Assembly (NCBI RefSeq): GCF_003334765.1
Contig: NZ_QOWT01000052.1
Origin: Escherichia coli
GTDB lineage: Bacteria; Pseudomonadota; Gammaproteobacteria; Enterobacterales; Enterobacteriaceae
Reading direction: 5' to 3' (one strand)
Length of the DNA stretch: 17,115 nucleotides
This document shows, in pieces, positions 1-17,115 of the stretch. Made by a program: the position numbers and the translations under genes. The number at the start of each line of letters is the position of its first letter. Position 1 is the stretch's first letter. The notes beneath the pieces were generated by a model. It worked only from the letters and a program-made list of their open reading frames with translations. It was not told the DNA's origin and made no database searches.

Positions 1-77
1 GTGGCGGCCTCAGTCCGGAACAATTTGAAAACAAGAACCTCGCTTAGGCCTGTGTCCATATTACGTGGGTAGGATCA
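1..77 (-). repeat. Left copy of a perfect 77-bp terminal inverted repeat; reverse complement equals 17039..17115. Likely the terminus of an IS3-family element whose body lies outside the window.
   Basis: Reverse complement of 1..77 is identical to 17039..17115; identity stops at 78 versus 17038. Terminus reads TGATCCTACCCAC...TGGACA, an IS3-family-like end. Confidence 0.6.
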
Positions 78-283
78 CAACGTCTTCACCGGCAGCAACA
101 GCAGTGAGGCTTCCTTCCTGGTATTGTTTCTTCCACTTAAACAACAGACTGGGCTGAATTCCATGCAAACGCGCCACGTGGGACACGGTCATGCCAGGCT
201 CCATAGTCTGTTGAATAATTGCGATTTTTTCCTGAGGTGTTTTTACGTTTACGCACCTCTTTTCCTAACAAAACGCCAGCCAT
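78..283 (-). pseudogene. IS2-like orfA (insC-like), frameshifted in an A-run near 235-245 and 3'-truncated by insertion
   Basis: N-terminal residues are in one frame and the HTH region in another; the ORF terminates in the inserted repeat (..EDVV-ILPT-stop). Confidence 0.5.
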
Positions 284-374
284 CTCAAAATTAGAACTAG
301 TGTTAGACATATATCCAAGCCTATCTCTTATTTTAAGATACATCTACTGTCTGGTATTTCAGGGGGACAGCTCA
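78..374 (-). mobile_element. IS2-like (IS3 family) left-end fragment: IRL-like sequence plus orfA, cut at 77/78 by the terminal repeat element
   Basis: Minus-strand translation gives [14 protein letters not shown]..., then after a frame change [55 protein letters not shown], matching IS2 InsC/OrfA as recalled. Upstream motifs CCCCCTGAA..CCAGACA resemble the IS2 IRL. Homology ends exactly at the repeat boundary. Confidence 0.55.
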
Positions 375-574
375 ACGAATAATCACACAGCAAATAATAA
401 TGACAAACAAGAATATAACTCAAAAAAATATCCAGAATGATGATATCCTGAATATTTTGCCACTACGAATTAATCATATGAACATAATAATTTGACAATA
501 ACCACGCAAAATGTTAAAGAATTACGAACCTATATAATAGACAAAATCGTAAAATAATAGGCTGGAGATATAAG

Positions 575-2023
575 ATGCTAAAGGGCTTTGATATAACAAA
601 AGCAAAAGCACAAGAAGTAGATACAGAACTACTTAAGCGTAGAATTTCCACTGGAAAAGCCATCGCATTCACAGGTGCAGGCTTCTCACTCGGAACAAAA
701 AATGTACTAGGCTCTACCCCCCCAATGGCTGGAGAGCTAGCTAAGAAACTCAGTTTATTATGTAATCTCGAAGAATCTGAAGATTTAATGTTTGCAGCAG
801 ACGTTGCACTTGAGTACGCAGATAATATTTCAGTATTAGACTTACTTAAAGATAATTACACACTAACATCTGTTTCAGAATGTCATGAAAAAATATGTAA
901 ACTACCCTGGAAAAAATTTTTCACAACAAATTATGATAACTCTATAGAACTTGCCTGTCTGAATATAGGTAAACGTATAGAATCAGTTGACTTATCTTAC
1001 AAACCAACAAATTTTTTAAAAAAAAATAATGTTTGCCTTCATATTAATGGAAAAATTGAAAGTGCTGAACCTGAAGATTTAACCTCCAAAATAAAATTAT
1101 CAGATTCATCATACCTGTCTCCAGATTCATTTGTAAATTCTGATTGGTACTATCACTTCAAAAAAGATCTTGAAACCGCAAGTGCTATCGTATTTATGGG
1201 ATACTCCATGTATGATATGGATGTAAAAAAATTCTTGTTCGAAAATCCAGAGTTACAAGAAAAAACTTACTTCGTTGTAAGAGATGGTGCCGATTTTAAA
1301 GAAATATTCACCCTAAGAAAATATGGACATGTTTTGCCAATTGGGGTGGACAGGTTTTCAGATTTAATGAAGGATGTTCAAAAGCAATCACATGAAGATG
1401 GTGTTATCTTCACAGAAACACTAGTCAAATATGAAGTTTTCGACACACAAACAGACTTTAGAGATATTGATAGTGAGCGATTATTTCTTTACGGTGATTA
1501 TGAAATAGAAAAACTCCATGACTCTATCAGAAGAATAGAAACCATTCCGTACTTTATTAAACGCGATATAATTCCTGTTTGTCTTAACAACATTAAAAAT
1601 AATAATAACATTATTATCACTGGCGATCTGGGAAATGGAAAGTCTATAGTTTTAGAAATGTTAGCTTATGAGTTAACTGTAAATGGTTTTCACACATATA
1701 TATTACGAAATAACGATGGTGATTATGTTTCTGATCTTGATCAAATTATCAAACATGAGGGGACGGCCGTAATTATCATTGATAACTGCTCTAATCATCC
1801 GGGTTTGATAAAACATATTTTTGAAGTTAAAGCTGATAACTTAATTTATGTTTTTGCTGACAGAAACTCAAACGACATAAAATTTAATATTTCTCTTGAT
1901 TTTATAGAGCACAATATAGACTTACTATCTAGTGACGAAATCGCAAGCGCAGTAAAAATCATAGATAATTTATCTACATGGCAAAAATTTTCCGCATTAT
2001 CCACTGAGAGAAAAAAAGATTAG
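575..2023 (+). CDS. SIR2-like (SIR2_2-type) domain fused to a P-loop NTPase domain; N-terminal 482-aa segment of a longer frameshifted gene
   Basis: SIR2_2-like motifs: FTGAGFS, TTNYD, LHINGK, VFMGYSMYDMD. Walker A GDLGNGKS and Walker B-like AVIIIDN. RBS GGAG about 8 nt upstream of the ATG. AT-rich codon usage. Confidence 0.7.
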   Translation: MLKGFDITKAKAQEVDTELLKRRISTGKAIAFTGAGFSLGTKNVLGSTPPMAGELAKKLSLLCNLEESEDLMFAADVALEYADNISVLDLLKDNYTLTSVSECHEKICKLPWKKFFTTNYDNSIELACLNIGKRIESVDLSYKPTNFLKKNNVCLHINGKIESAEPEDLTSKIKLSDSSYLSPDSFVNSDWYYHFKKDLETASAIVFMGYSMYDMDVKKFLFENPELQEKTYFVVRDGADFKEIFTLRKYGHVLPIGVDRFSDLMKDVQKQSHEDGVIFTETLVKYEVFDTQTDFRDIDSERLFLYGDYEIEKLHDSIRRIETIPYFIKRDIIPVCLNNIKNNNNIIITGDLGNGKSIVLEMLAYELTVNGFHTYILRNNDGDYVSDLDQIIKHEGTAVIIIDNCSNHPGLIKHIFEVKADNLIYVFADRNSNDIKFNISLDFIEHNIDLLSSDEIASAVKIIDNLSTWQKFSALSTERKKD

Positions 2024-2301
2024 TATATGAAAAATATGACGCACAGCTATCTCTATTGCTTCTGGGATTGATAAATAGTCCAAATATAAAAACAAAAATC
2101 AAACAACAAACCGATTTAATATATTCCAATCCAGATCATAAAAAGAGCGTCTTCTGCATTTGCATTTGTGAAGTCGCTAATGTAGAACCAACATCAAGTT
2201 TAGTATCAGAAATATCAGGAACTAATGCTATTTATCATACATCACTAAGAAACTCCCCCCCCATTCAATCAAATTTTCAAAGTAAATGGAGCAACTATTA
2301 A
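2008..2301 (+). other. Middle fragment of the SIR2/NTPase gene in the +1 frame between two homopolymer frameshifts
   Basis: This frame is open from 2008 immediately after the A7 run (2011..2017) and ends shortly after the C8 run (2255..2262). Confidence 0.4.
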
Positions 2302-3019
2302 ATCAAAATCAAGCATTCTGTCATTATCTTTACTAAACAATACCTTTAGCGATATTTATGTAAGAGATGTACTCCTTGAAATTGTTGAACGTACTGACTC
2401 AATAAAAGACCAGGATATTGAAATAAAAAAAATATTTAAAGCACTATTGAGATTTCATATAGTTGAAAGAATTTTACCGAAGAATCAATCTGCACTAGAC
2501 AGATATTATGAACAGTTAAAATATAGATGCACATGGTTAATGGATAGCCCTCACTATTGGGTTCAATATGCAATGTGTCGACTATCTTTTTCAGATTATA
2601 ATAGAGCACAAAATTACCTAACCAACGCTTATCAAAAAGCAGAAACAAAAAAAGGAAGTTATCATACTGATAACATTGACACTCAACAGGCTCGTCTATA
2701 TTTAAATCAGTGTTTAGATCATAACAACAGTTCTGAGTGTTATAAACTGTTCGATAAAGCACATGCTCTTCTTGTGAAACTCCCCAATGAAGGAAGAAAG
2801 TTTAGACAAGTTCTGTTATATAAAAAAGTTTTTGATTTAAAATACCAAAGTTTCAGTAAAAAAAACAAAACTGATTTTGAACAGGCATGTAAAAAATTAT
2901 TAGATCAGACAAAACCAGATAATGTTTATCCTATAAATACTAATATGGTAAGATTCATCACCTCTGCTGAAGAGGCATTAATTGAAATATTAAACACTAT
3001 TATGCTAGAGCGAACTTAA
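2264..3019 (+). CDS. C-terminal alpha-helical (possibly TPR-like) segment of the SIR2/NTPase gene; the frame is open from 2264 although the ORF caller starts at 2447
   Basis: Same frame as 575..2023, open from just after the C8 run to the stop at 3019, followed by a strong terminator hairpin. Confidence 0.55.
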   Translation, partial: FNQIFKVNGATIKSKSSILSLSLLNNTFSDIYVRDVLLEIVERTDSIKDQDIEIKKIFKALLRFHIVERILPKNQSALDRYYEQLKYRCTWLMDSPHYWVQYAMCRLSFSDYNRAQNYLTNAYQKAETKKGSYHTDNIDTQQARLYLNQCLDHNNSSECYKLFDKAHALLVKLPNEGRKFRQVLLYKKVFDLKYQSFSKKNKTDFEQACKKLLDQTKPDNVYPINTNMVRFITSAEEALIEILNTIMLERT

Positions 3020-3027
3020 CTGTAAAA

Positions 3028-3053
3028 AGCCACCTCCTGAGGAGGTGGCTTTT
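3028..3053. terminator. Rho-independent terminator hairpin, possibly bidirectional
   Basis: Perfect 10-bp stem AGCCACCTCC / GGAGGTGGCT with a 3-nt loop, followed by TTTT and preceded by AAAA. Confidence 0.65.
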
Positions 3054-3096
3054 CAGAATCCCCCCTATAAGGATGGCAAATGTCATATTCCATTTT

Positions 3097-3468
3097 CTAC
3101 TCTAGCAACTCCATCTGCTGTTCATGTGTTTGTTCCATCTTTTCCTGGTACCTCACATATCGTCTGATAATTTCTTCGTTCCCCCCTACCGTATCAACAA
3201 AGTAACCCCTCGACCAAAAATGGTTTCCCCATAACTTCTTCCCGATATGCAGGAATCGATTGTAGAGTCTGATTGCACTGCGGTCTTTCAGCTGCCCCAT
3301 CAGAGTAGATATTGAGATTTTTGGTAGCACTATTACGACAAGATGCATATGATCTGGCTGTACATTTAACTCCAGAGCCTCGCAATCTTTTATTCCGCAA
3401 AGAATAAAGATGGTTCTGTACAGCTCCTTGCCCAATTTATCCCTCAGAATCCTAAAGCGGTACTTTAG
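3097..3468 (-). CDS. tnpA: IS200/IS605-family Y1 (HUH) transposase TnpA; N-terminus apparently disrupted (in-frame stop upstream of the conserved CKYHIV, no ATG)
   Basis: Minus-strand translation CKYHIVWTLKYR...DHMHLVV (HxH)...FWSRGYFVDTVG (catalytic Y region) matches IS200 TnpA. The ORF caller starts at an internal Met (3435). Confidence 0.7.
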   Translation of the reverse strand, partial: LKYRFRILRDKLGKELYRTIFILCGIKDCEALELNVQPDHMHLVVIVLPKISISTLMGQLKDRSAIRLYNRFLHIGKKLWGNHFWSRGYFVDTVGGNEEIIRRYVRYQEKMEQTHEQQMELLE

Positions 3469-3917
3469 CGTCCAGACTATGTGATATTTGCAACACTAAT
3501 ATACATGTGATGAACTTCTGTAAAGCCCTATATCAGTTTGTCTCCTTTTACTTGTGGTGTGTAAGCAGATATATTCAGACATGGACATTCTTCAGGCTAT
3601 AACCTTACAGGAACAATCACCACCTCCACAAGAGGTGAGGTTTTATTTTACCTGTCACTCCCAAAAGAGTATATTAATACATGAATAATGTCTTAGCATT
3701 CTATTTGGCATTCATATTAATTTAACTTCTGCACCCCTAATATTTCATTACTCTCTTTTGAATGTATGCCTGATACAGTATATGATGTTAAAAACTTAAT
3801 TGACGTTGTGTAAATAGACCCGTTTTGGTTACATACATTTTTTGAGATTCCGGAAAGAATTACCCTGTCCCAAAATCAATACAGTGCTAAATCAGAGATC
3901 TTTGTCTTTCCTGAGAC

Positions 3918-4295
3918 TTCAAAAAAATTCAGCCGGCGTCACGTCATTTAATTATGAATGCGTTCTCTCATGATTATATTTCCTGCGCCAGTAATCGAGT
4001 TTGTCTTGTGCATCTTCCAGTTTTCAGCGCCAGTGATATAAGACGGTAATTCGCCATTTGGATTGTCCGCATCCCCATAACGGTCAAACATCGTGGCGTT
4101 GACACAGTGACAGGAACCAGTGAATGTTCAGACACTCATCCCGCAGACTGCCGTTAAACGATTCAATAAACGGTTTATCTGCCAGCTTTCCGGGGGGCGA
4201 GAAGTCCATGTTCACACCGTGTTCATACGCCCCTTTATCCAGACTTTTGAGATAAACTCGCTGCCGTTGTCACCGCCACGATGTTTGACCGTTAT
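3918..4295 (-). pseudogene. IS3-family (IS2-group-like) orfB C-terminal remnant with frameshift and premature stop
   Basis: Minus-strand frames give GGDNGSEFISK, PGKLADKPFIESFNGSLRDECLNIHWFLSLEDAQDKLDYWRRKYNHERTHS, then stop, then TPAEFF: a DDE/integrase core C-terminus. Confidence 0.55.
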
Positions 4296-4327
4296 TTGCC
4301 ATTTTCATGCCCGCTAAGATACTTTCG

Positions 4328-5111
<784 letters not shown>

Positions 5112-5115
<4 letters not shown>

Positions 5116-5780
5116 AACAGCTCCTCATAGGTACTCAGTGGTCGATGTTCCACCTGACTGACCTGCTGCCAGAGCGGGGCGTGATGCTCCGGCACTGTCT
5201 GCCAGCCAGACGATGCCGGACAGAGGCGATGTGAGGCCACCAGTTTCTCATTACTGTAGATCCGCAACTCGTCATCCAGCGATATTCGTATCGATACTGG
5301 CTGACCACACAGCGCTTCGGGAACGCTGTAACGATTACCACCAACCTCGATATAGCTGTCCCAGGACACATGGCGGATGTCGAAGTAACTGGTATCGAAG
5401 TCCGTATCCGGTAACGGCTGCAGATGTTCCTGCTCCAGCGCGAAGCGCTGTTCCGGCGTTTCTTTGAACTGGCGAAGCTCCCGTTTGTCAGCCACATCGG
5501 CTATCCATTGCTCCAGTAGTTGATTAACATGAGTGAAGCTGTCGAACCTGCGGTACCGGACGAAGAAGTTCTCCTTGAGGTATTTCACCATCCGCTCAAC
5601 CTTACCTTTTGTTCTGGCCCTGCGTGGACGGCATGCCCGTGGCAGGAAGTTATAGTGGTCGGCCAGCAACAGGAATCCGGAGTTGAACACGACTTTCCCG
5701 TTGTTATTCTTCAGCACCGCAGCCTTCTGGTTATCAACCAGCACCGTTTTCACACAACCACCGAATTTGATCCCTGAAAA
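5112..5780 (-). pseudogene. istA: IS21-family istA, 5'-truncated (C-terminal part only)
   Basis: Translation ..GIKFGGCVKTVLVDNQKAAVLKNNNGKVVFN... continues in frame upstream of the called start to a stop near 5780. Confidence 0.7.
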
Positions 5781-6018
5781 CTGTCAGCGCTGCGAGGACA
5801 TGGCTGCTTAAAAAAAGAACAAATGGTAGTGTCCGCTATTGCCAGTACACCTCAGATTCTGGGGATAACTGCGAAAAGAATATGTGCCAGGAAAGTCGGC
5901 TCCCGGGAAAAAGACCGCTGGCGGCGCAGCTGCTGGATACGAAAGCTGAGCTGAAAGGATCCCGGGAGGACGTCCGTAAACTTCAGTCCCTGGCCCGTCA
6001 TGACGGGAAGGTGAAAAA

Positions 6019-6660
6019 GTGAATGCGGACACCTGGACCCGCCTGCAGGCCTTCCGACATGCTCTGGAGCTGACTTCCTGTGAGGCTTCTCTCACCGCCG
6101 GGTATGATCACCTGAAGGATTTCCCGGCCGGTTGCAGCGAGCTGGCCAGCCAGACGCTGACTGATTATCTGACGGAAGACGGCAGCAACCTGTACTCCTG
6201 TATTGTCGGTATGCAGTGGGATAATGGTCCTGGCAGATACGGCCACGTCATTGCCGCCCCTGCCAGGGACTATATCGACCTGACCCTTGATCAGTTTCCA
6301 GGCTATCATAACCGGATTGTGGCAGAGCCCGTTGAGTCCGGCGGACAGCTCGCGGCAGACCTCAACAGGGAGCCTGCCATCAGTACAGCTGATGGAATAG
6401 TGGCCAGCGCATCAGATAAGGTTAATTACATTACTGAACAGAAAAATCGCCAGCCAATGGTGATCATTACAGAATGTTACAAACTGATCAGAATGACGGC
6501 AAGATTTATACCAATGTGCCAGTCATCTCAACTCTTCCAGCACCAGATATTCCCTCGCTTATTTATCATTTCAGACGTTGGCTCCTGCAGTTTGTCCAGG
6601 AACACCTTAGATCGTTTAGCTACTGACTGGAAGGTGACACTGTCCGTCCTGTCGCTATAG
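6019..6660 (+). CDS. Hypothetical protein; the C-terminal third may be spurious read-through
   Basis: 213-aa ORF with a GTG start overlapping the stop of a small upstream ORF; GC-rich backbone-like codon usage; no recognisable motifs. Confidence 0.35.
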   Translation: MNADTWTRLQAFRHALELTSCEASLTAGYDHLKDFPAGCSELASQTLTDYLTEDGSNLYSCIVGMQWDNGPGRYGHVIAAPARDYIDLTLDQFPGYHNRIVAEPVESGGQLAADLNREPAISTADGIVASASDKVNYITEQKNRQPMVIITECYKLIRMTARFIPMCQSSQLFQHQIFPRLFIISDVGSCSLSRNTLDRLATDWKVTLSVLSL

Positions 6661-7239
6661 GGCTTGATATAAACCAGGCAGGCAAGGGATCTGGTTAACA
6701 CCTTTCCTTCCATAAAGTGTTTGAAGATCCAGAGATACGTATCCACAAGCTCCAGCCCTGTACTCAGTGTCCCCGACTGGAAGACCTGCGGTTCAGCTGG
6801 TATTTCCGTTACATCCATGACCGGTGTCTGCGCAGCAGTGCCTGTCATCAGGATATTCATGGAGCCAGTCTGTATGCGCCTCTGGCGTTGAAACAAACAT
6901 ATGAAGTGTATTTCGGATATGACTGTACGCTCAGGAAGTACGGCAGATTCCGTCAAAAATTACCTGTAAAGACAGACTTCAGAAAAAACGGTGCTCGCCG
7001 CAGACCGGTGACCGGGCGAAGCCCGCGAACCGGCGAGGAAGCGCAATGGATCTGTAATCACAGTGAGCAGGTACGCCCTGAAGCCTTCATAATCGGTAGT
7101 GTATGCTGTTTTTCCGGAATGATTTATCCACATATCCAGAGGCCCGATCCAGTAAATAGATCCATGAATGATCAATAAAGGATCCATTAAAGATCCCCAT
7201 ATCGCTACAAACCTTGTCACTCATGGGCCGGGACCACGA

Positions 7240-7345
7240 TCACATAAGCTGTGGCATGTTACTGATAAACTGTAATATGCTAATGATAAGCTGTATTCAG
7301 TAATGCATATACTGAAGTAAGCTAATGACATAAACTATGGTCAGT
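7240..7345. repeat. Iteron-like repeats upstream of repA (RepFIB-type origin repeats)
   Basis: Repeated ATAAGCTGT / ATAAACTGTA-type motifs, at least five copies. Confidence 0.5.
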
Positions 7346-7499
7346 ACGCCAGACTCTGTTGTTAAATACAGACTGCAGGTTTTTCTTCAGTCAGTTAGCG
7401 GGGCTCTGACACACGATTTGCTGTTTATTCTTTTACTGTCCACAGGCAGGAGGCTTTCTGGAAAACGAAAATTCAGACATCAAAAAACTGTTCGGCGAG

Positions 7500-8477
7500 G
7501 TGGATAAGTCGTCCGGTGAGCTGGTGACACTGACACCAAACAATAACAACACCGTACAACCTGTGGCGCTGATGCGTCTGGGCGTCTTTGTACCGACCCT
7601 TAAGTCACTGAAGAACAGTAAAAAAAATACTCTGTCACGCACCGATGCCACGGAAGAACTGACGCGTCTTTCCCTGGCCCGTGCAGAAGGATTCGATAAG
7701 GTTGAGATCACCGGCCCCCGGCTGGATATGGATAACGATTTCAAGACCTGGGTGGGGATCATTCATTCCTTTGCCCGCCATAACGTGATTGGTGACAAAG
7801 TTGAACTGCCTTTTGTCGAGTTTGCAAAACTGTGTGGTATACCCTCAAGCCAGTCATCACGCAGGCTGCGTGAGCGCATCAGCCCTTCCCTGAAACGCAT
7901 TGCCGGTACCGTGATCTCCTTTTCCCGCACCGATGAGAAGCACACCCGGGAATACATCACCCATCTGGTACAGTCAGCCTACTACGATACTGAACGGGAT
8001 ATTGTTCAGTTACAGGCTGATCCCCGCCTTTTTGAACTGTACCAGTTTGACAGAAAGGTCCTTCTTCAGCTTAAGGCGATTAATGCCCTGAAGCGACGGG
8101 AGTCCGCCCAGGCACTTTACACCTTTATAGAGAGCCTGCCCCGGGATCCGGCACCGGTATCGCTGGCGCGGCTGCGTGCACGCCTCAATCTGAAGTCTCC
8201 TGTATTTTCCCAGAACCAGACGGTCAGACGGGCAATGGAGCAGTTGCGCGAGATTGGATATCTTGATTACACGGAGATCCAGCGGGGGCGGACAAAACTC
8301 TTCTGCATTCACTACCGGCGTCCCCGGTTAAAAGCACCGAATGATGAGAGTAAGGAAAATCCGTTGCCACCTTCACCTGCGGAAAAAGTCAGTCCGGAGA
8401 TGGCGGAGAAGCTTGCCCTGCTTGAAAAACTGGGCATCACGCTGGATGACCTGGAAAAACTCTTCAAATCCCGCTGA
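7500..8477 (+). CDS. repA: Plasmid replication initiator RepA, RepFIB-type
   Basis: 325-aa ORF beginning [30 protein letters not shown]..., recalled as IncFIB RepA; flanked on both sides by iteron clusters; GTG start. Confidence 0.8.
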
Positions 8478-8478
8478 A

Positions 8479-8747
8479 CATAAACTGTAGTCAGTGAAGA
8501 GTGCTCCTTTACTGACTACAGCTTATATTATCAGGTGCAGTGAGTGGTCTGCTCACTGCAGTTTATATTCAGTTTCCTGCAGTGCTGCCTGTGGCTGAGC
8601 TGCCATCTGCCTGTCCCTTACGTGAGTCACCCCGTAACCTGATGCTGAGGCATTTCTCCCTTTATAAAACATGGTTTACTCACTACAGCTTATCTACCTG
8701 CTCCAGCTTATGTTATGTCTGTTCTGCTGACCACTGCTTATATAAGG
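8479..8747. repeat. Iteron-like repeats downstream of repA
   Basis: Repeated ACTACAGCTTAT / CTGCAGTTTATATT / CCACTGCTTATATA motifs in both orientations. Confidence 0.5.
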
Positions 8748-8755
8748 AAGTGCCG

Positions 8756-9496
8756 TTACTTCAGGGGAGGCAGTGTACGCAGGATCTCCGCAGCATCCCG
8801 CCCGTCACCTGTGAAAGGCACTGCCAGCGTGGCAGCCATATCCAGTGCAAACACTCTGGTATAAACCTCCATAGAACGTGGATCCCTGTGACCAGCCAGT
8901 GCCTGGATGACTTTCCGGGGCTGGCGGTGATAGAGCATGTGCATGATATAGCTGTGCCGGAAGGTGTGTGGTGTGACCGGAATCGAAAAGTGCACCCCGT
9001 CAGCTTCGGCCCGCTTCACTGCCTGTTTCAGCCAGTTCCGCATCGTTTCATCCGTCACAGCCCATAACGGTGCACGGCGCCGGGGCCGGGTGGTGATCAT
9101 CCAGCTCTCCATCTGCCTGACATAGCTTATATCCGTCAGCGGGACCAGGCGGACTTCATCTTTTGGAGGGCGCCCGCGTCGCGCACGCACTTTTTCGGAC
9201 AGGATCCGCACAAACGGTCTTACTCCATCCAGGTCAAATGATTCCGGTGTCAGCATCCGGGCTTCGCCAATACGCATTCCGGTATTCCAGAGGGTGGCGA
9301 ACAGCATATGGTGACGCTGATCCGGCATATAGAAAAGAAGGGCACTCACTTCCGGGGCCAGCAGGTAGGCCGGTGTGGCCCCCGTGGAAGTGGCCATTCT
9401 TCTCAGGGAGAGCGCTGTTGCAAAATCCACCCCTGGCGCAATGGGTAACAGGGAGACGCGTTCTGGTGAATTCTGCAGGGGAATGACATTGTTCAT
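8756..9496 (-). CDS. int: Tyrosine site-specific recombinase (phage-integrase family)
   Basis: 246 aa with C-terminal [12 protein letters not shown]...[16 protein letters not shown], matching the R-H-R-Y catalytic region (LGH...Y motif). Confidence 0.8.
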
Positions 9497-9712
9497 GAGT
9501 TATTTTTCACGTAGCACACGCACTGTTTATGGATACAGTTATTCTGACCTGAACGCACGGATCCTTCCACGACAATAAATCGCAGCGCGCGGATCCTTTT
9601 GTTTGCTTATCACGCATTATTGCGGGTAAAACCAAATACGTAAAGGCGCGTTTTGCCGCAGGGATCCTGTCTTAAGCCAGTCATGGCGCGGGCTGAGAGC
9701 TGGTTTGCCGTT

Positions 9713-9858
9713 TTTGGGAGAATTGGGGTAATGCCAGGACAAACAGGATCGAACCAGAAGGGGGAGGGTGCAGAGAAGGAGAGGAAGCGCTACGTGAATT
9801 CTGACCTGGTACACCCCTGTAACCCTGTCTGTTTCCACGTAGCGCAATGCGGTTACTG
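9713..9858 (+). repeat. Repeat A: about 146-bp element, diverged direct copy of repeat B; contains a 10-bp inverted repeat GCGCTACGTG (9787..9796) / CACGTAGCGC (9836..9845)
   Basis: Start TTTGGGAGAATTGGGGTAAT and the core CGCTACGTGAATTCTGACCTGGTACA are near-identical to repeat B. Confidence 0.5.
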
Positions 9859-9859
9859 A

Positions 9860-10109
9860 CTACTGCCAGTTGAGATGACGCCCGGCATCCTGATGCTGAC
9901 TTAAAATACGGATAATAATAATATCTGTATCAGTCTGAATAAAATAAAGCATATGCCGTTCAACGGGCAGTGCGAAGATATCTTCCACCAGTTCAGGCCG
10001 GGGAGTGCCGATATTATTATCACTCATAACCTGAAAAATGCCGGCACCCGTAATACCAGATATCCTCCAGATCCTGACTGGCTTTAGGTGTGAGTTTAAC
10101 GGTTTTCAC
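9860..10109 (-). pseudogene. parE: ParE/RelE-family toxin, apparently frameshifted near 10050..10055
   Basis: GTG start overlaps the parD stop; N-terminal frame reads VKTVKLTPKASQDLEDIWYY.. then stop; a second frame reads ..PELVEDIFALPVERHMLYFIQTDTDIIIIRILSQHQDAGRHL, a ParE-like C-terminus. No ORF of 60 aa or more was called here. Confidence 0.5.
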
Positions 10110-10362
10110 CGGAAGCCCTCGTACCAGCCTTAACTTTTTTCAGGAACGCGTCCTTTTCCCACGCCACAGGTTCGCCGCTGCTCAGGCCTTCTGCCAGTAA
10201 ATCCCGCAGGGCCTGGAGACGTGACTCTGCCTGTTTCTCGCGCAGGAGACGAAGTGACTCGCGAATCACTTCACTCTGAGTACGATAATCACCTGATTCT
10301 ATGAGAGATTCAATGAATTCACGGAGTTCATCTCCGAGATCCACTGTCATTGTTCTGGCCAT
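10096..10362 (-). CDS. parD: ParD-family (ribbon-helix-helix) antitoxin
   Basis: 88 aa, MARTMTVDLGDELREFIESLIESGDYRTQSEVIRESLRLLREKQ...; RBS GAGG upstream; operon with the downstream toxin. Confidence 0.75.
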   Translation of the reverse strand: MARTMTVDLGDELREFIESLIESGDYRTQSEVIRESLRLLREKQAESRLQALRDLLAEGLSSGEPVAWEKDAFLKKVKAGTRASGENR

Positions 10363-10376
10363 ATTAAAGCCTCAAT

Positions 10377-10399
10377 ATTGTAAGTTTAAATCTTACAAT
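10377..10399. promoter_or_regulatory. Palindromic putative operator ATTGTAAG-N7-CTTACAAT, 15 bp upstream of the parD start
   Basis: 8-bp inverted arms around an AT-rich spacer, overlapping a candidate -10 on the minus strand. Confidence 0.45.
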
Positions 10400-10439
10400 C
10401 AGTTTATTCGATACTCAAGGGCGAGTCCAGTACTGAACA

Positions 10440-10577
10440 TTTGGGAGAAATGGGGTAATACCCAAGATAGACCAAAAAGGGAAGGGAGAAGTAAAGAAGA
10501 AGGTTCGCTACGTAAATTCTGACTTGGTACAAACCTCTATAAAAAAGAAATTTTTCATGTAACACATTTGGGTACTG
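10440..10577 (+). repeat. Repeat B: about 138-bp diverged copy of repeat A, flanked by direct 9-bp CCCAGTACT (10427..10435 and 10592..10600)
   Basis: Alignable to repeat A over its whole length at roughly three-quarters identity by eye. Confidence 0.5.
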
Positions 10578-10641
10578 CCTCCCAGTAAAGGGAGACAGCA
10601 TCCCAGTACTATAATTGTACTATATAATATAATGTAGGTGA

Positions 10642-12579
10642 TTAAAATAAATTATCTAATCCGAGCAAACTTTCTTTTTCCTTTTTTATCATGTTGAGAT
10701 GATTTAGTGATTTTAAATAAATATAATTATACATATCTTCAACCAAGTTTTCTAATACTAGGAAAACCCTGTTTTTTACACCTGCCTGTGTTAATAATTT
10801 ATCTATAAGCATACTGTTTTTATCGTTTATGATTCCATCAGATTTTATTTTATCGAGGCCTGAAATTATCTTTAAACATGAAGGTGTCGTAATTGCATTG
10901 TCAAAAATAATGTCATGCAAAGAGTATGTTGATAATTTTTCTATATCAGAGAAGGCGAGGACATTCAGAATGTTATCATTAAATGGACCGATTGATACAT
11001 CGTGCATAGATTCAAGTTTATTGTTATTTGATTTTCTATCTTTACGTAGTTCTTTATTTTGAACAATAACTCTCGCATCACCGATTAGTTTATAATAGAA
11101 ATTTTCAGCTAATGTGCTCGCTGAAAAATTCTCTTCTTTAAAACCAATCTCTTGCATTAACGGAATGATTAACTCTTCCGTTGTATTTTCCATGTCTATG
11201 TGGTTTAAAAAAACCGCAGTATTCAGCATAATAGAGTTATTTTTTAGTTCCTTTACCAAACTCAGCAATATCTTACTTTTTATACTAGATGCGCTGTTTT
11301 TAATGAATTCAGCCGCATGATACTCTTGAATTGTTTTATGGACAAATGTAAATATTTCGGCGCCATCTCTTCTGATCAAACCTGTGACATCGATATAGTC
11401 ATTAATAAGATCTTCGGCAAAAGTATCAGAATAATTGAGCCCCAAAACTTTAAATGATTTTTTAGTGATATTTTTTAAGTTATCCCATGATAATTGGGAT
11501 GAACTTTTTAGCGATATGTAACATAAAGCACAAAATATTTCTTTTGATTCACTAATTGAGAGGTTTGTTTTTCTATGCCTTTTATAGAAATTTTTTGTTT
11601 TATCATGGCCTTCAAATAGTATATTAAATATTCTATTGTAAAATTCTCTTGCATTTTTAGGCATTGAATCGAGATGCTTTTCACAAACACAAAGCAGTAC
11701 AGCAAGAATTGGAGTATTAATTGAAGAAAGCAATTGTTTATTTTTCTTAAGCGCTGCTATAAGTTGATCAGCTGACTCCTTTGGTAAAAAATTACCTATT
11801 ATGGAAAAAACATCTTTCTCTGTTAGTGGTTCAACATGATAATTATTTATTCCTGCAGTAGTGCATATTTCTGTTCCAGGCCGAGACGTTGATATTAATT
11901 GAGTCTGAAAAGAATCATTTAAATGCAATATTTCTTTTAAAATAGTTTCTCTAATATCAGGGGATATTTCATCAAAACCATCTAGTAGTAATATAATTTT
12001 TTTACTTTTCAGTAACCCCTTTAGGTCAGCATTAGTGCAGTTTAATTCGAGAGTAGTTAATGTTTTTATTAAACTATCTTGTATTGAATTGTTTTCCAAG
12101 TTTCTAAGATCAAAAAAGAATGGTATTTTATTAATTTTTGAATTATTACTTAAAATAGCTAGGAATATTTTTCTTAAAATTGTTGTTTTCCCTTGTCCAG
12201 CAGCGCCAATTATATTTAATATATTTTCATTTTGAATACAAAAATCATTATTAATTAAAAGGTCTTCATTTGTACGGTTGTTTTTTACCGTGAGTGGATG
12301 ATAAAATTCATCTATAAAAGCATCATCATTTAAATTATATAAAGTTCTTACTGACAAGTATCTTTTAATACATAAATCAAAATAATGAGTGAAAGTATCT
12401 TTCTTCAATATTTGTTCAATAAGTACTTTCGCATTATCAGTTCCATGTTTCCACTTTTGTGAAACTACTGAATTTAACAATTCGTAAGTTGATTTTGTTA
12501 AAGATTCACTAAAAGTTTCTACCATTTTATTGGTGGCCACAATACCCAGTGCAGCAGCAGATATTGTTAACGGTTCCAT
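10642..12579 (-). CDS. NACHT-domain NTPase (bacterial NACHT / STAND family), 645 aa
   Basis: Walker A GAAGQGKTT; NACHT-type Walker B ILLLDGFDE; sensor-1 ISTSRP; RBS AAGGAG 6 nt upstream of the ATG; AT-rich. Confidence 0.85.
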   Translation of the reverse strand: MEPLTISAAALGIVATNKMVETFSESLTKSTYELLNSVVSQKWKHGTDNAKVLIEQILKKDTFTHYFDLCIKRYLSVRTLYNLNDDAFIDEFYHPLTVKNNRTNEDLLINNDFCIQNENILNIIGAAGQGKTTILRKIFLAILSNNSKINKIPFFFDLRNLENNSIQDSLIKTLTTLELNCTNADLKGLLKSKKIILLLDGFDEISPDIRETILKEILHLNDSFQTQLISTSRPGTEICTTAGINNYHVEPLTEKDVFSIIGNFLPKESADQLIAALKKNKQLLSSINTPILAVLLCVCEKHLDSMPKNAREFYNRIFNILFEGHDKTKNFYKRHRKTNLSISESKEIFCALCYISLKSSSQLSWDNLKNITKKSFKVLGLNYSDTFAEDLINDYIDVTGLIRRDGAEIFTFVHKTIQEYHAAEFIKNSASSIKSKILLSLVKELKNNSIMLNTAVFLNHIDMENTTEELIIPLMQEIGFKEENFSASTLAENFYYKLIGDARVIVQNKELRKDRKSNNNKLESMHDVSIGPFNDNILNVLAFSDIEKLSTYSLHDIIFDNAITTPSCLKIISGLDKIKSDGIINDKNSMLIDKLLTQAGVKNRVFLVLENLVEDMYNYIYLKSLNHLNMIKKEKESLLGLDNLF

Positions 12580-12867: not shown

Positions 12868-13570
12868 TAAGGGTGTAACAGCAAAGTTGTAATGTCCGCC
12901 TTGGGCTAAGTTAAGATGTCCGGCGTGTATAATCAAGTAAGGATTACCATGACGGCTCTCGCAGCGGAGTTTTTCACTTTGGATGAAGTTAACCGACTCA
13001 AGATTATTCAGGACGTCATCGACCGGCGTCTGACAACACAGATGGCAGCGCAGCGGCTTGGTATCTCCGACCGCCAGTGCCGTCGTCTGCTTGCGCGTTA
13101 TCGTGAAGATGGTCCGCTTGGCATGACCAGCCGCGTGTCGAAATCACTCACTGTGCAGTACGACAAAGTGCTTTACCTCATTGAAGACAATGAGTTCAGT
13201 CGTCGGGCGATTGGTAAATACATTGATGTCTGGCATTACCCTGACGGACATAAAGAGCTCCGGCTTAATGGCGTATCAATTCCCTACTCCACCTATGACA
13301 AACTGTCTGAAATCGATCAGGGTGCCATTGTGGACAATAAACGTCTTGGGCGTGCGCTGGAGATGGCGCAACTTGTGCAGGCCGAACGGGATAATAACCG
13401 GTCACAATCAGTGCCATCCGGTGACGGCCCTTCACGCAGGCGCAAAGCCCCTACGACGAAGAAATCCCAGCGTTCTTTGGACCAGGACGATATGTTCAAT
13501 GCACTTGTAAAACTTCAGACACGAGCTGAGGAGATTTTTGGTGAACGCAACCAAAAATGATGTTTTGATA
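12868..13570 (+). mobile_element. ISNCY/IS481-like IS remnant with an internally deleted transposase gene
   Basis: Left-end sequence AAGGGTGTA... is shared with the full copy at about 15675; the gene lacks the catalytic core. Confidence 0.5.
12949..13560 (+). pseudogene. Internally deleted DDE transposase derivative: N-terminal HTH fused in frame to the C-terminal domain (about 280 aa of catalytic core missing)
   Basis: Residues ..NRLKIIQDVIDRRL..GPLGM and ..LTVQYDKVLYLIEDNEFSRRAIGKYIDVWHYPDGHKELRLNG.. align to both ends of the 415-aa transposase at 15794..17041. Extended -10 TGTATAAT and RBS AAGGA precede the ATG at 12949. Confidence 0.6.
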
Positions 13571-13611: not shown

Positions 13612-14658
13612 ATGATAACGTTTTCTATGGATGAAAGTGGCTATACGGGTTATGACTTACTCCACAAAGAGCAAAAATTCCAAGGCGCGTCATCAATATT
13701 AATAAACCATGATGACGCCAGTCGTCTGATAAAAGAATATTTCCCCAAACTTCAAGCCGATGAATTGAAGTACAGCTCGCTGAAAAGAAGAGATTCCAAC
13801 CGCAAGCCATTATTTGAATTGCAAAAGCATCTCTTATCTAATTACCCATGTATAACATGCGTAGGTGATAAACGCTTTTTACTAATTCTTATGTTCATCG
13901 ATTATGCTGTTGAACCATTCTATTATGATTTTGGGATTAATCTTTATGAGGATGGCGGTAACTTCTCAATGGCATCAATGGTGTATTACGTTGGACCAGC
14001 GTATTATGGCTCTGCCTTTGATGATGTTCTGCTTCAGTTTCAAAATGCTATGAAAGAAAAAACATTAGATTCAGTGAGTTTGCTAATAAGCAAAATAAGG
14101 AGGCTTGACTGGCAAAGGTTAAAAGAGTTTTTTGGTCCTTTGGCATTTAACCACCCAGATTGTATTGATGCCATCATGACTGATGGAATTAGCACTGATG
14201 CCTCATTTACTATTTTAAATGCATTAATTTCTCGCACGGAAATGATGTCCTCTGGAGAGTATGCAATTGAGCATGATCGTTCTAAAAATCTGCTAACTTA
14301 CAATGAACGCCTTAACTTTTTGATCAATTGTGATAAGGAAGGAGAGTTTAAACATTCCGAGATAGCAACTATCTCATTCCCACTAAACCTTAAAAAAGTC
14401 TATCAAATTGATTCGAAAGAAAGCCCAAGCGTGCAATTGTGTGATGTTCTTATAGGTGCATGTATTGAATCAGTTTATCAATTAATGGACTCTAAGGTAC
14501 TCAATCAAAATTCCGTTCTTTCACTTTACCAAGATAGCCAGTTAATACATTTCATACCTGATATAGATTTTGAAGGACAGAAAAAATTTAGGAAAGGCAG
14601 TCAAAGTGAGGAGTATCTTACGTTTATTCAAAATGAAATCTACTCTAGTAAACTTTAA
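13612..14658 (+). CDS. DUF3800-like protein (uncharacterised), 348 aa
   Basis: N-terminal FSMDESGYTG (DESG motif) and C-terminal VQLCDVLIGA (QxxD-like motif), as recalled for DUF3800; RBS GGAG; AT-rich. Confidence 0.6.
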   Translation: MITFSMDESGYTGYDLLHKEQKFQGASSILINHDDASRLIKEYFPKLQADELKYSSLKRRDSNRKPLFELQKHLLSNYPCITCVGDKRFLLILMFIDYAVEPFYYDFGINLYEDGGNFSMASMVYYVGPAYYGSAFDDVLLQFQNAMKEKTLDSVSLLISKIRRLDWQRLKEFFGPLAFNHPDCIDAIMTDGISTDASFTILNALISRTEMMSSGEYAIEHDRSKNLLTYNERLNFLINCDKEGEFKHSEIATISFPLNLKKVYQIDSKESPSVQLCDVLIGACIESVYQLMDSKVLNQNSVLSLYQDSQLIHFIPDIDFEGQKKFRKGSQSEEYLTFIQNEIYSSKL

Positions 14659-14893: not shown

Positions 14894-15538
14894 TCATACC
14901 TGTTTTCTTAGAAGCTGGTCAATATAGCTGATCGTGTGAAATTCACGTTCGATTTTCATACAAACATTTGGCAACTGTTCGATAAGAAAGTTTTCATCGA
15001 AGCGATCTAGAAGGTACGTGAGGGTAATAGTATCAATTTTATTCAATTTTCTATGTAAAACTGAAGAACGCCTCACAAAATCGTTTTTCCTTAACTCTTG
15101 AATAACATCGATCAAAATAGGGTTGAATAATTCTTTTTCTGGAAAGGACTTGTAAATTTTCGAATCAATAATTTGAGAAGGATCTAAGCGGTTAATTAAA
15201 TTATTACTGCTAACTATGTAGCACTTATCAATCATCAAACCTTCCGTTTTGCAACGGTCTAAATCACAAGCGTTTATTATACATTCTTTAAATACAACAT
15301 GTCGCAGGCTCCCGCCTCTAAAAAGGACTCCTCTTAATAAAGAGGATTGGAAAAGACTGCCAGTAAAGTTACACCATTTCAATGAAGCACCAATAAAAGA
15401 CGTGTTCGTGAATTTTGACTGAAAAAAATTTGAATGGTAACTGTGTGTCTTATTGAAATTTTTATTTATAAAATTCCTACTCGCAACATCACGATTATTG
15501 TAGCTGAAAGCATTTTTGCTCTTCTTATTCCTTGCCAT
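14894..15538 (-). CDS. Pentapeptide-repeat protein: N-terminal pentapeptide-repeat region plus a C-terminal domain of unknown function, 214 aa
   Basis: Residues about 20..95 show a 5-residue periodicity (RNFIN KNFNK .. SNFFQ SKFTN TSFIG ASLKW CNFTG SLFQS SLLRG VLFRG GSLRH VVFKE) with F/L at the centre position. Confidence 0.6.
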   Translation of the reverse strand: MARNKKSKNAFSYNNRDVASRNFINKNFNKTHSYHSNFFQSKFTNTSFIGASLKWCNFTGSLFQSSLLRGVLFRGGSLRHVVFKECIINACDLDRCKTEGLMIDKCYIVSSNNLINRLDPSQIIDSKIYKSFPEKELFNPILIDVIQELRKNDFVRRSSVLHRKLNKIDTITLTYLLDRFDENFLIEQLPNVCMKIEREFHTISYIDQLLRKQV

Positions 15539-15674: not shown

Positions 15675-17038
15675 AAAGGGTGTAGAGGCTCAATGCTAAT
15701 GTCTATTTGTGGCTCATTGGAATGTCCAGGCTATAGTTTCTCAGATCCCTATGTCTAGACAACGACTCACTTTTTCCTGATGAGGAGTTTTCTATGGCTA
15801 TAAATGACGCCGGAATGTTCACCGTGAAAGAAATCAATCGCCTCAAAATCCTTCAGGATGTCATCGATCGCAATATCCGTCCTGGACAGGCTGCCGAAAT
15901 GCTGGTCATCACGCCACGTCATTGCAGCCGTCTGCTCAAACGTTATCGCCAGTATGGGCCGCTTGGCATGAACAACCAGAGTCGTGGCCGCACTGGTAAC
16001 CGTCTGTTGCCAGCGTCACTGACAGATCAGGCACTCAGTATAATCCGGGAGCACTACCGTGATTTTGGCCCCACGCTAGCGCGGGAAAAGCTGGAGGAAG
16101 TTCACGGTCTGGTCCTTGGAAAGGAAACCATCCGACGTCTCATGATAAAGGCCGGACTCTGGATTCCCCGCAGACAACGCGCACCGAAAATTCATCAGCC
16201 TCGTTACCGGCGTCCTTGTACTGGCGAGCTGATACAAATTGATGGCTGCGACCACCACTGGTTTGAAAACCGGGGTCGACCCTGTACTGCCCTGGTCTAT
16301 GTTGACGATGCCACCAGTCGCCTGATGCACCTGCTGTTTGTGAAATCTGAGTCCACATTTACCTATTTTGAAGCTACACGTGGCTATATCGAGAAATACG
16401 GTAAACCGATGATCCTCTACAGCGATAAAGCCAGCATATTCAGAGTCAATAATAAGCACGCCACCACCGGCCCCGGCGAAACCCAGTTTGCCAGGGCCAT
16501 GCGCTGCCTTAATATTACTCCTTTGTGTGCTGAAACCAGCCAGGCAAAAGGCCGCGTTGAACGTGCTCATTTGACACTTCAGGACCGACTCGTTAAGGAG
16601 CTCAGGCTTAAGGGGATCTGTACAATAGAAGCGGCCAATGCATTTGCAGAAGAATACATGGCGGATTATAACCGTCGCTTTGCCAAAGAACCCTTGCATG
16701 ATTTTAACGCGCACCGGCCGCTGGCATTAGACGATGACCTTGATGCAGAATTTACCTGGCGAGAGCCTCGCCGGGTATCAAAAAATCTGACTGTACAATA
16801 CGATAAAATGCTCTATCTGATTGAGGACAACGAGTACAGTCGAAGAGCCATCGGCAAGTATATTGATGTCTGGCATTATCCTGACGGACATAAGGAGCTG
16901 CGACTAAATGGCGTGCTGCTGCCCTACTCCACCTATGACCGGCTTTCTGAGGTTGATCCCGTCGCCATTGTAGATAACAAGAGACTTGGCCATGTGTTGG
17001 ATGTTGCCCGTCAGGTCCAGAGAAAACGGGACAATAAT
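15675..17038 (+). mobile_element. ISNCY/IS481-like insertion sequence, 3'-truncated by insertion of the terminal-repeat element
   Basis: Left-end homology with the 12868 copy; the transposase reading frame is cut at 17038/17039. Confidence 0.6.
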
Positions 17039-17041
17039 TGA
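15794..17041 (+). CDS. DDE transposase (integrase-core type, ISNCY/IS481-like), 415 aa, C-terminally truncated by about 45 aa relative to the homolog at 12949..13560
   Basis: N-terminal HTH, central core (..QIDGCDHHWF..YVDDATSRLM..) and C-terminal DVWHYPDGHKELRLNG; RBS GAGGAG. The stop codon TGA is supplied by the first bases of the 77-bp repeat. Confidence 0.8.
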   Translation: MAINDAGMFTVKEINRLKILQDVIDRNIRPGQAAEMLVITPRHCSRLLKRYRQYGPLGMNNQSRGRTGNRLLPASLTDQALSIIREHYRDFGPTLAREKLEEVHGLVLGKETIRRLMIKAGLWIPRRQRAPKIHQPRYRRPCTGELIQIDGCDHHWFENRGRPCTALVYVDDATSRLMHLLFVKSESTFTYFEATRGYIEKYGKPMILYSDKASIFRVNNKHATTGPGETQFARAMRCLNITPLCAETSQAKGRVERAHLTLQDRLVKELRLKGICTIEAANAFAEEYMADYNRRFAKEPLHDFNAHRPLALDDDLDAEFTWREPRRVSKNLTVQYDKMLYLIEDNEYSRRAIGKYIDVWHYPDGHKELRLNGVLLPYSTYDRLSEVDPVAIVDNKRLGHVLDVARQVQRKRDNN

Positions 17042-17115
17042 TCCTACCCACGTAATATGGACACAGGCCTAAGCGAGGTTCTTGTTTTCAAATTGTTCCG
17101 GACTGAGGCCGCCAC
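17039..17115 (+). repeat. Right copy of the 77-bp terminal inverted repeat (IS3-family-like terminus)
   Basis: Identical to the reverse complement of 1..77. Confidence 0.6.

Follow-up and report, generated by a model that had tools for sequence, protein, structure and literature searches.

A parDE pair with a destroyed toxin gene beside RepFIB

The 17,115-nt stretch of DNA analyzed here (the window) is the part of an E. coli IncF plasmid that holds the RepFIB replicon. In it we identified an ordinary plasmid type II parDE pair whose toxin gene is destroyed and whose antitoxin gene is whole. We consider it very probable that the pair is a toxin-antitoxin (TA) module in decay, its toxin killed by a single repeat-mediated deletion and its ParD a recent leftover that marks a transitional stage. 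The operon runs exactly from 9860 to 10362, the limits given in an earlier note made from the sequence alone. The description in that note, a parDE-like locus with an intact antitoxin and a decayed toxin, was borne out and agrees with the RefSeq (PGAP) annotation of identical sequence, which lists a ParD family antitoxin and a pseudogene labelled 'type II toxin-antitoxin system RelE/ParE family toxin, frameshifted'. With its toxin disrupted and annotated by PGAP as a pseudogene, the operon is not a functional type II TA module, for which both genes would have to be intact.

The neighbors of parDE are the RepFIB initiator gene repB (7500-8477, plus strand), a gene for a tyrosine recombinase (8756-9496, minus strand) and a gene for a NACHT-domain protein (10642-12579, minus strand). 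Several E. coli IncF plasmids, among them those of the ETEC strains 90-9281, WS3294A, E7476, and TW14425, share the 861 nt around the locus with 100% identity. One of the identical RefSeq E. coli plasmids is NZ_CP024244.1 (locus COG34_RS26460/26455), which shares the full 861 nt as well as the annotation of ParD plus frameshifted toxin; plasmids of this type show no differences in the locus itself, and their flanking cargo varies from plasmid to plasmid. The pseudogene state is already in public annotation and the general phenomenon is already known, and the significance of the locus, one more degraded plasmid TA locus, is small. A literature search returned no paper on this particular RepFIB-linked parDE, which may or may not be identical to ParDE-I of IncI/IncF plasmids (PMC6614396).

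The antitoxin gene and its upstream region

The antitoxin gene parD (10096-10362, minus strand; ATG at 10362, stop at 10096-10098) is an unbroken reading frame for an 88-aa ribbon-helix-helix protein of the ParD family. It scores 84.4 bits against NCBIfam TIGR02606 (cutoff 46.2), with residues 4-74 covering model positions 1-69 of 70, and the intact ParD-like ribbon-helix-helix antitoxin proposed in the earlier note thereby stands. Pfam PF03693 is recorded for a protein identical to the window ParD, encoded by the Logan contig L020. The window ParD further matches the antitoxin chains of solved ParD-ParE complexes (7YCS_D, 1e-26; 7B22/7R5A, 1.2e-11; 3KXE_C, 1.7e-10; 8C24_C, 1.8e-9). Compared with ParD proteins that are partnered with an intact ParE, it has the same length and a near-identical sequence, differing by two residues from each of those compared (loci L006 and L021).

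Upstream of parD, sequence reading points to a GAGG Shine-Dalgarno sequence (10370-10373, minus strand) and a palindrome ATTGTAAG-N7-CTTACAAT (10377-10399, minus strand), a candidate ParD operator that overlaps a candidate -10 element and that is kept in all alleles compared. A scan for consensus promoters and terminators gave no sigma-70 promoter upstream of parD, and its counts did not exceed those of shuffled sequences. ParD is probably still expressed from this conserved, palindrome-bearing upstream region.

A 47-nt deletion in the toxin gene

The toxin gene parE is reduced to a pseudogene of 250 nt (9860-10109, minus strand), as seen from alignments to intact homologues and the PGAP label 'frameshifted'; intact genes measure 297 nt. 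The pseudogene begins with a GTG at 10109 and shares its first 14 nt with the end of parD; the original stop codon is kept at 9860-9862. Outside the lesion described below, the remnant has ~90% nucleotide identity to intact parE genes and occupies the same position after parD, which identifies it as a descendant of a ParE gene. The proposal of the earlier note that the N-terminus (from GTG 10109) and the C-terminus (to the stop at 9860-9862) of the toxin lie in different frames was correct. The N-terminal fragment, MKTVKLTPKASQDLEDIWYYGCRHFSGYE, is an open reading frame of 29 aa (10020-10109, minus strand) that begins MKTVKLTPKASQDLEDIWYYG, in which residues 1-22 are ParE-like and are followed by seven out-of-frame residues and a TGA stop at 10020-10022. 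The C-terminal fragment, 55 aa from an internal Met of ParE (9860-10027, minus strand; stop at 9860-9862), ends in IIIIRILSQHQDAGRHLNWQ. As read from the sequence, an AGG stands just 2 nt before its ATG, and the fragment would therefore have no usable Shine-Dalgarno sequence. Against Pfam ParE_toxin (PF05016) the 55-aa fragment covers only model positions 44-88 (E = 0.0012), and the window holds no full-length, single-frame domain of this family but two fragments in different frames. NCBIfam gave no match for either the intact ParE or its fragments, and Pfam had to be used instead.

For comparison, the intact homologue of plasmid pNORD58_1 (L002) is a 98-aa protein that matches Pfam ParE_toxin over positions 1-88 at 7.9e-12 and also matches the ParE chains of 7YCS, 3KXE, 7R5A, and 8C24. 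When the window parE was aligned with four intact parE genes, from L002, Salmonella salamae, S. bongori, and Klebsiella aerogenes, the only indel was a gap of 47 nt, which costs ~16 codons and puts the rest out of frame. At the junction, 10036-10045 (minus strand), a 9-nt repeat copy, CCGGCATTT, is retained at 10044-10036. The nearest intact relative found, the Logan contig L021 (encoding protein P0007), reads ...GGGTGCCTGCATTTCGG...(47 nt)...ATCCGGCATTTTTCAGG and contains the imperfect 9-nt direct repeats CCTGCATTT and CCGGCATTT (CCKGCATTT), with a distance of exactly 47 nt from start to start; of these two repeats a single copy, GGGTGCCGGCATTTTTCAGG, remains in the window. To judge from these sequences, a deletion between short direct repeats of this kind is the signature of slippage or illegitimate recombination. 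The 1-nt indel that the earlier note had assumed around 10050-10055 is wrong, as the alignments with intact homologues show, and the true junction of the 47-nt deletion is 5-10 nt from the guessed position.

The structural consequences were examined on an AlphaFold2 model of an intact relative (mean pLDDT 89), which comprises beta1 (residues 3-6), alpha1 (8-25), alpha2 (27-46), and three strands (60-86). The deleted block takes in the last part of alpha1, the turn and the greater part of alpha2, and it contains G26, A30, D31, and Y33, which are conserved in at least 90% of 25 homologues. Translation from the start codon of parE itself gives only 22 native residues. From the missing alpha1-alpha2 segment and the conserved residues lost with it, we infer a loss of ParE function, such that no functional ParE would be made. 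Since the deletion takes conserved residues, a one-base repair would not bring back the toxin but would give a ParE without 16 residues; correcting the lesion to a 47-nt slippage deletion bears on any attempt at repair.

Beside the junction lies a T5 run (10034-10038, minus strand; A5 on the plus strand). Three Logan contigs, including L020 (3001-3249; ERR12418564), have the same 47-nt deletion with T4 in place of T5, whereby the frame is restored and an 82-aa single-frame ParE without 16 internal residues is encoded (P0068 in L020). Because the repeat spacing is 47 nt, the T4 variant is most simply taken as a later 1-nt change, or else as a read error, rather than as the ancestral state. Some relatives, represented by these three contigs, may thus make a shortened ParE product. 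The 82-aa variant was also considered as the intact single-frame ParE that, according to the earlier note, would speak against a broken toxin, and was rejected because of the missing internal residues. A search for an intact toxin of the exact sub-lineage of the window yielded proteins at best 92-93% identical to a chimeric reconstruction, none of them with the motif ELVEDIF that is specific to the window, and the direct ancestor of the deletion allele was not found.

Taken as a mechanism, a single event of replication slippage or illegitimate recombination between the imperfect 9-nt repeats, 47 nt apart, would have excised the alpha1-alpha2 block described above and put the downstream codons out of frame, leaving the 29-aa N-terminal peptide alone as translatable from its own start. 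With parD, its Shine-Dalgarno sequence and the putative palindromic operator untouched, ParD is probably made and probably represses its own promoter, without a cognate toxin at this locus.

Age of the deletion allele

A 52-nt probe centered on the junction was found exactly in 14 complete E. coli genomes, in all of them on plasmids, and the exact junction is also present in nine PLSDB plasmids. That the frameshift is an artefact of sequencing or assembly, and that the toxin is really intact, has almost no probability: the window does resemble a short-read contig, with inverted ends of 77 nt, and another of its genes has a compensating pair of 1-nt frameshifts, but the lesion in parE is 47 nt long and no homopolymer error, and its exact junction recurs in the 14 independently finished genomes and in the PLSDB plasmids. 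The artefact was rejected on the identity of the 52-nt junction in those complete genomes.

The deletion is young as far as the sequences allow it to be dated, because neither toxin fragment has further stops or indels, because the dN/dS of the remnant falls within the range of intact genes, and because the copies of the allele are near-identical (99.8-100%). The dN/dS comparison, meant to reveal relaxed constraint on the remnant or persisting constraint on parD, was uninformative on both: the values were 0.18-0.24 for the remnant versus intact alleles and 0.14-0.38 among intact alleles, and the remnant was accordingly not elevated. Relative to L021, parD has 14 synonymous and two conservative non-synonymous differences, and the parE remnant has four synonymous and four non-synonymous ones, including G57V at a near-invariant position; the contrast between the two genes is not significant (Fisher p = 0.13). 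The 14 versus 2 pattern of parD fits continued constraint, but most of the divergence probably predates the deletion.

Decay of parDE across E. coli

The distribution of alleles was counted in 5,426 complete E. coli genomes, and the lesions were read in 14 fetched loci. The 861-nt locus region was matched by 2,735 genomes, ~79% of which have no match to this parE, and any match to parE at all was obtained in 572 genomes. Apart from the window lineage (lineage A; 47-nt deletion in parE, parD intact, 14 complete genomes), two further lineages with a broken toxin gene were distinguished. Lineage B (38 genomes) has a +1 insertion at nt 75 of parE together with a stop at codon 67, and its parD start is changed from ATG to ATC, for which PGAP annotates an upstream TTG start. 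Lineage C (464 genomes, counted as exact matches to a diagnostic parE segment) has parE stops at codons 18 and 29, sometimes with a 1-nt deletion, and a 2-nt insertion in parD, a frameshift read in all four loci examined. Intact alleles without lesions, similar to L002, were confirmed in three genomes among the 572. Additional parE copies are cut by IS1 (L010 and L011), and in L015 and L016, which were read directly, parDE is absent altogether. Intact relatives are common in Salmonella, Klebsiella, and Citrobacter and few in E. coli.

The 47-nt deletion and the +1 T insertion of lineage B share a CCATTT(T) tract at nt 75-76 of parE (~10036-10045 in the window, ~2585 in L004), which suggests a local mutational hotspot with two independent lesions.

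Based on these lesions, parE appears to have been inactivated independently in at least three lineages. These inactivations, together with the lack of a parE match in most genomes that have the locus region, support the relaxed selection on addiction that the earlier note had suggested. Loss of the antitoxin first would be lethal, and TA modules therefore decay toxin-first; an intact antitoxin beside a dead toxin is therefore the expected intermediate stage. No allele with a dead antitoxin and a live toxin was seen among the loci read, as expected for a state that would be lethal. When ordered by their lesions, the alleles constitute what reads as a toxin-first decay series, from intact through toxin dead and both genes dead to module absent, with the window as the first step. 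The series is readable at one plasmid locus and shows that E. coli IncFIB plasmids, which as a rule have other addiction systems, can do without this parDE.

A different explanation for the whole parD is that it is kept by selection, as an anti-addiction or cross-neutralizing antitoxin against post-segregational killing by related plasmids with an intact ParE of the same family. ParD is whole in 14 of 14 complete-genome copies and in the L020 variant, its two-residue differences from the ParD of L006 and L021 suggest that it should bind the toxins of those loci, intact relatives circulate in the three genera named above and in a few E. coli, and the idea has been discussed for orphan antitoxins (PMC7192599). 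We nevertheless regard this explanation as unlikely. The copies of the allele are near-clonal, and an intact parD is for that reason uninformative on selection since the deletion. Moreover, parD is frameshifted in the commonest E. coli lineage as well (4/4 loci read) and most locus-region genomes are without a parE match, which argues against a general pressure to keep ParD, and few E. coli have an intact cognate toxin (confirmed in 3 of 572 genomes). In the preferred reading, that of a decaying module, the persistence of ParD would reflect the recency of the deletion rather than demonstrated selection.

Flanking repeats and boundaries of the module

The parDE module is bounded by two copies of a 23-nt direct repeat, TTTGGGAGAAWTGGGGTAATRCC, at 9713-9735 and 10440-10462 (plus strand), the right copy being the point where homology to other parDE plasmids stops. 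The motif has two matches in the window versus zero expected and flanks parDE on both sides in most loci; the tyrosine recombinase gene begins ~220 nt downstream of it. Each copy heads a unit of ~145 nt (9713-9858 and 10440-10578), and the two units are 72-75% identical. Within the left unit, just downstream of the parE stop, the sequence forms a hairpin (GCGCTACGTG ... CACGTAGCGC; 9787-9845, minus strand). The fold of the whole unit downstream of parE did not differ from shuffled sequences (z = -0.3), giving no evidence of structured RNA beyond this one hairpin, and a scan of the whole window with Rfam at gathering thresholds matched no RNA family, so that the flanking repeat unit is not a described RNA. 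Two small open reading frames cross the repeat units together with the 23-nt motif (9617-9847 and 10404-10601, both minus strand). NCBIfam holds no family for the small open reading frames that overlap these units, and the public names of the former are inconsistent ('hypothetical protein', 'transcriptional regulator', 'serine/threonine protein kinase').

Comparison of L002, L006, L012, L015, and L016 showed that the module of ~730 bp is either there or missing, with exact borders at the repeats. Where parDE is missing, one motif connects the left flank to the sequence found past the second motif in plasmids with parDE, and the cargo past the second motif varies (NACHT, Sll1717-family ATPase, pco, mig-14). 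This pattern fits either repeat-mediated deletion or site-specific gain and loss. A bolder proposal would make the 23-nt motif the site at which the recombinase acquires, drops or exchanges TA and defence cassettes, with ParD then acting as an anti-addiction factor in plasmid competition; we hold this to be doubtful. The repeat-bounded module beside a recombinase gene is the only part of the locus that might repay more work.

The arrangement of the genes also bears on whether ParD could be kept as a regulator of a transcript that would extend past the dead parE to include the tyrosine recombinase gene downstream. The genes parD, parE and the recombinase gene follow one another in that order on the minus strand, the candidate operator palindrome is conserved, and an analogue exists in RepFIA of F, where ccdAB precedes resD and the rfsF sites, ccdAB and resD are described together (PMC4398462). 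Such a role is nonetheless highly improbable, as 363 nt including the long hairpin separate parE from the recombinase gene, and as this gene and the ~240 nt upstream of it are retained in plasmids that lack parDE. A promoter-like site (9644-9616) lies within these ~240 nt, and the recombinase gene would therefore probably be transcribed from a promoter of its own.

Two other plasmids carry additional TA sequence in tandem just past parDE. In L006 (2438-2575) this is a 96-nt duplicate of the 3' end of parE, and in L013 (2775-3334), the pAA plasmid of O104:H4, it is an intact RelE/ParE and CopG pair.

Other features of the window

Defence-like genes cluster near the RepFIB replicon, and the set differs among plasmids. 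In the window they comprise a SIR2 gene (575-3019), the NACHT gene, and DUF3800 and pentapeptide-repeat genes (with 13612-14658 and 14894-15538 among the coordinates of the cluster), and in other plasmids (L001 and L005) the RepFIB flanks have genes for an abortive-infection protein, a DUF2971 protein or an Sll1717-family P-loop ATPase. The RepFIB flanks hence look like a variable hotspot for defence and TA genes. The SIR2-family gene (plus strand) shares 99.7% identity with its intact 814-aa counterpart in pECC-1470_100. The window copy has a -1 deletion at gene nt 1437 (~2011 in the window) and a +1 insertion at nt 1681 (~2254), between which ~81 codons are out of frame and contain stops, and these frameshifts may reflect genuine decay of a defence gene or errors in homopolymers.

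The ends of the window (1-77 and 17039-17115) form a perfect inverted repeat of 77 nt, and in matching plasmids an IS3-family element adjoins the right end. This resembles a contig assembled from short reads that stops on each side at a copy of an insertion sequence, the two copies being inverted, with 77 presumably the k-mer length of the assembler. In addition, two diverged copies (74-75%) of a helix-turn-helix or transposase-like gene segment were observed at 13072-13397 and 15917-17037, as well as a 28-nt inverted repeat (96%) at 4077-4104 and 4268-4295, with the arms 163 nt apart.

Comparison with known systems

The locus belongs with the class of ParD (TIGR02606/PF03693) and ParE (PF05016) pairs that includes ParD1-ParE1 of Caulobacter (3KXE), ParD2-ParE2 of Vibrio cholerae (7R5A) and the 7YCS/7YCU complex. 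Like these, it has the antitoxin gene first, with the toxin start overlapping the antitoxin stop, an 88-aa ribbon-helix-helix ParD and a palindrome upstream of parD, and the 98-aa ParE of its intact relatives has the predicted fold beta-alpha-alpha-beta3. It differs from the class in that the toxin gene of the window is a pseudogene, with 47 nt deleted and the frame shifted.

In gene arrangement, the locus resembles ccdAB-resD with rfsF in RepFIA of F (PMC4398462), where a TA pair and a tyrosine recombinase gene also stand beside the replicon with short repeated sites nearby. The likeness is one of arrangement, as the TA family is ParDE and not CcdAB, and the 23-nt repeats are candidate sites only.

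The closest parallel for the state of the locus comes from a survey of Klebsiella pneumoniae, in which orphan antitoxins beside degraded toxins were abundant and were read as degrading TA pairs, possibly anti-addiction modules (Horesh et al. 2020, PMC7192599). As in that survey, the antitoxin of the window remains in its original context beside a disrupted toxin. In contrast to it, the present case is located on the replicon backbone of an E. coli plasmid, and the decay can be followed as a series across the relatives of one locus.
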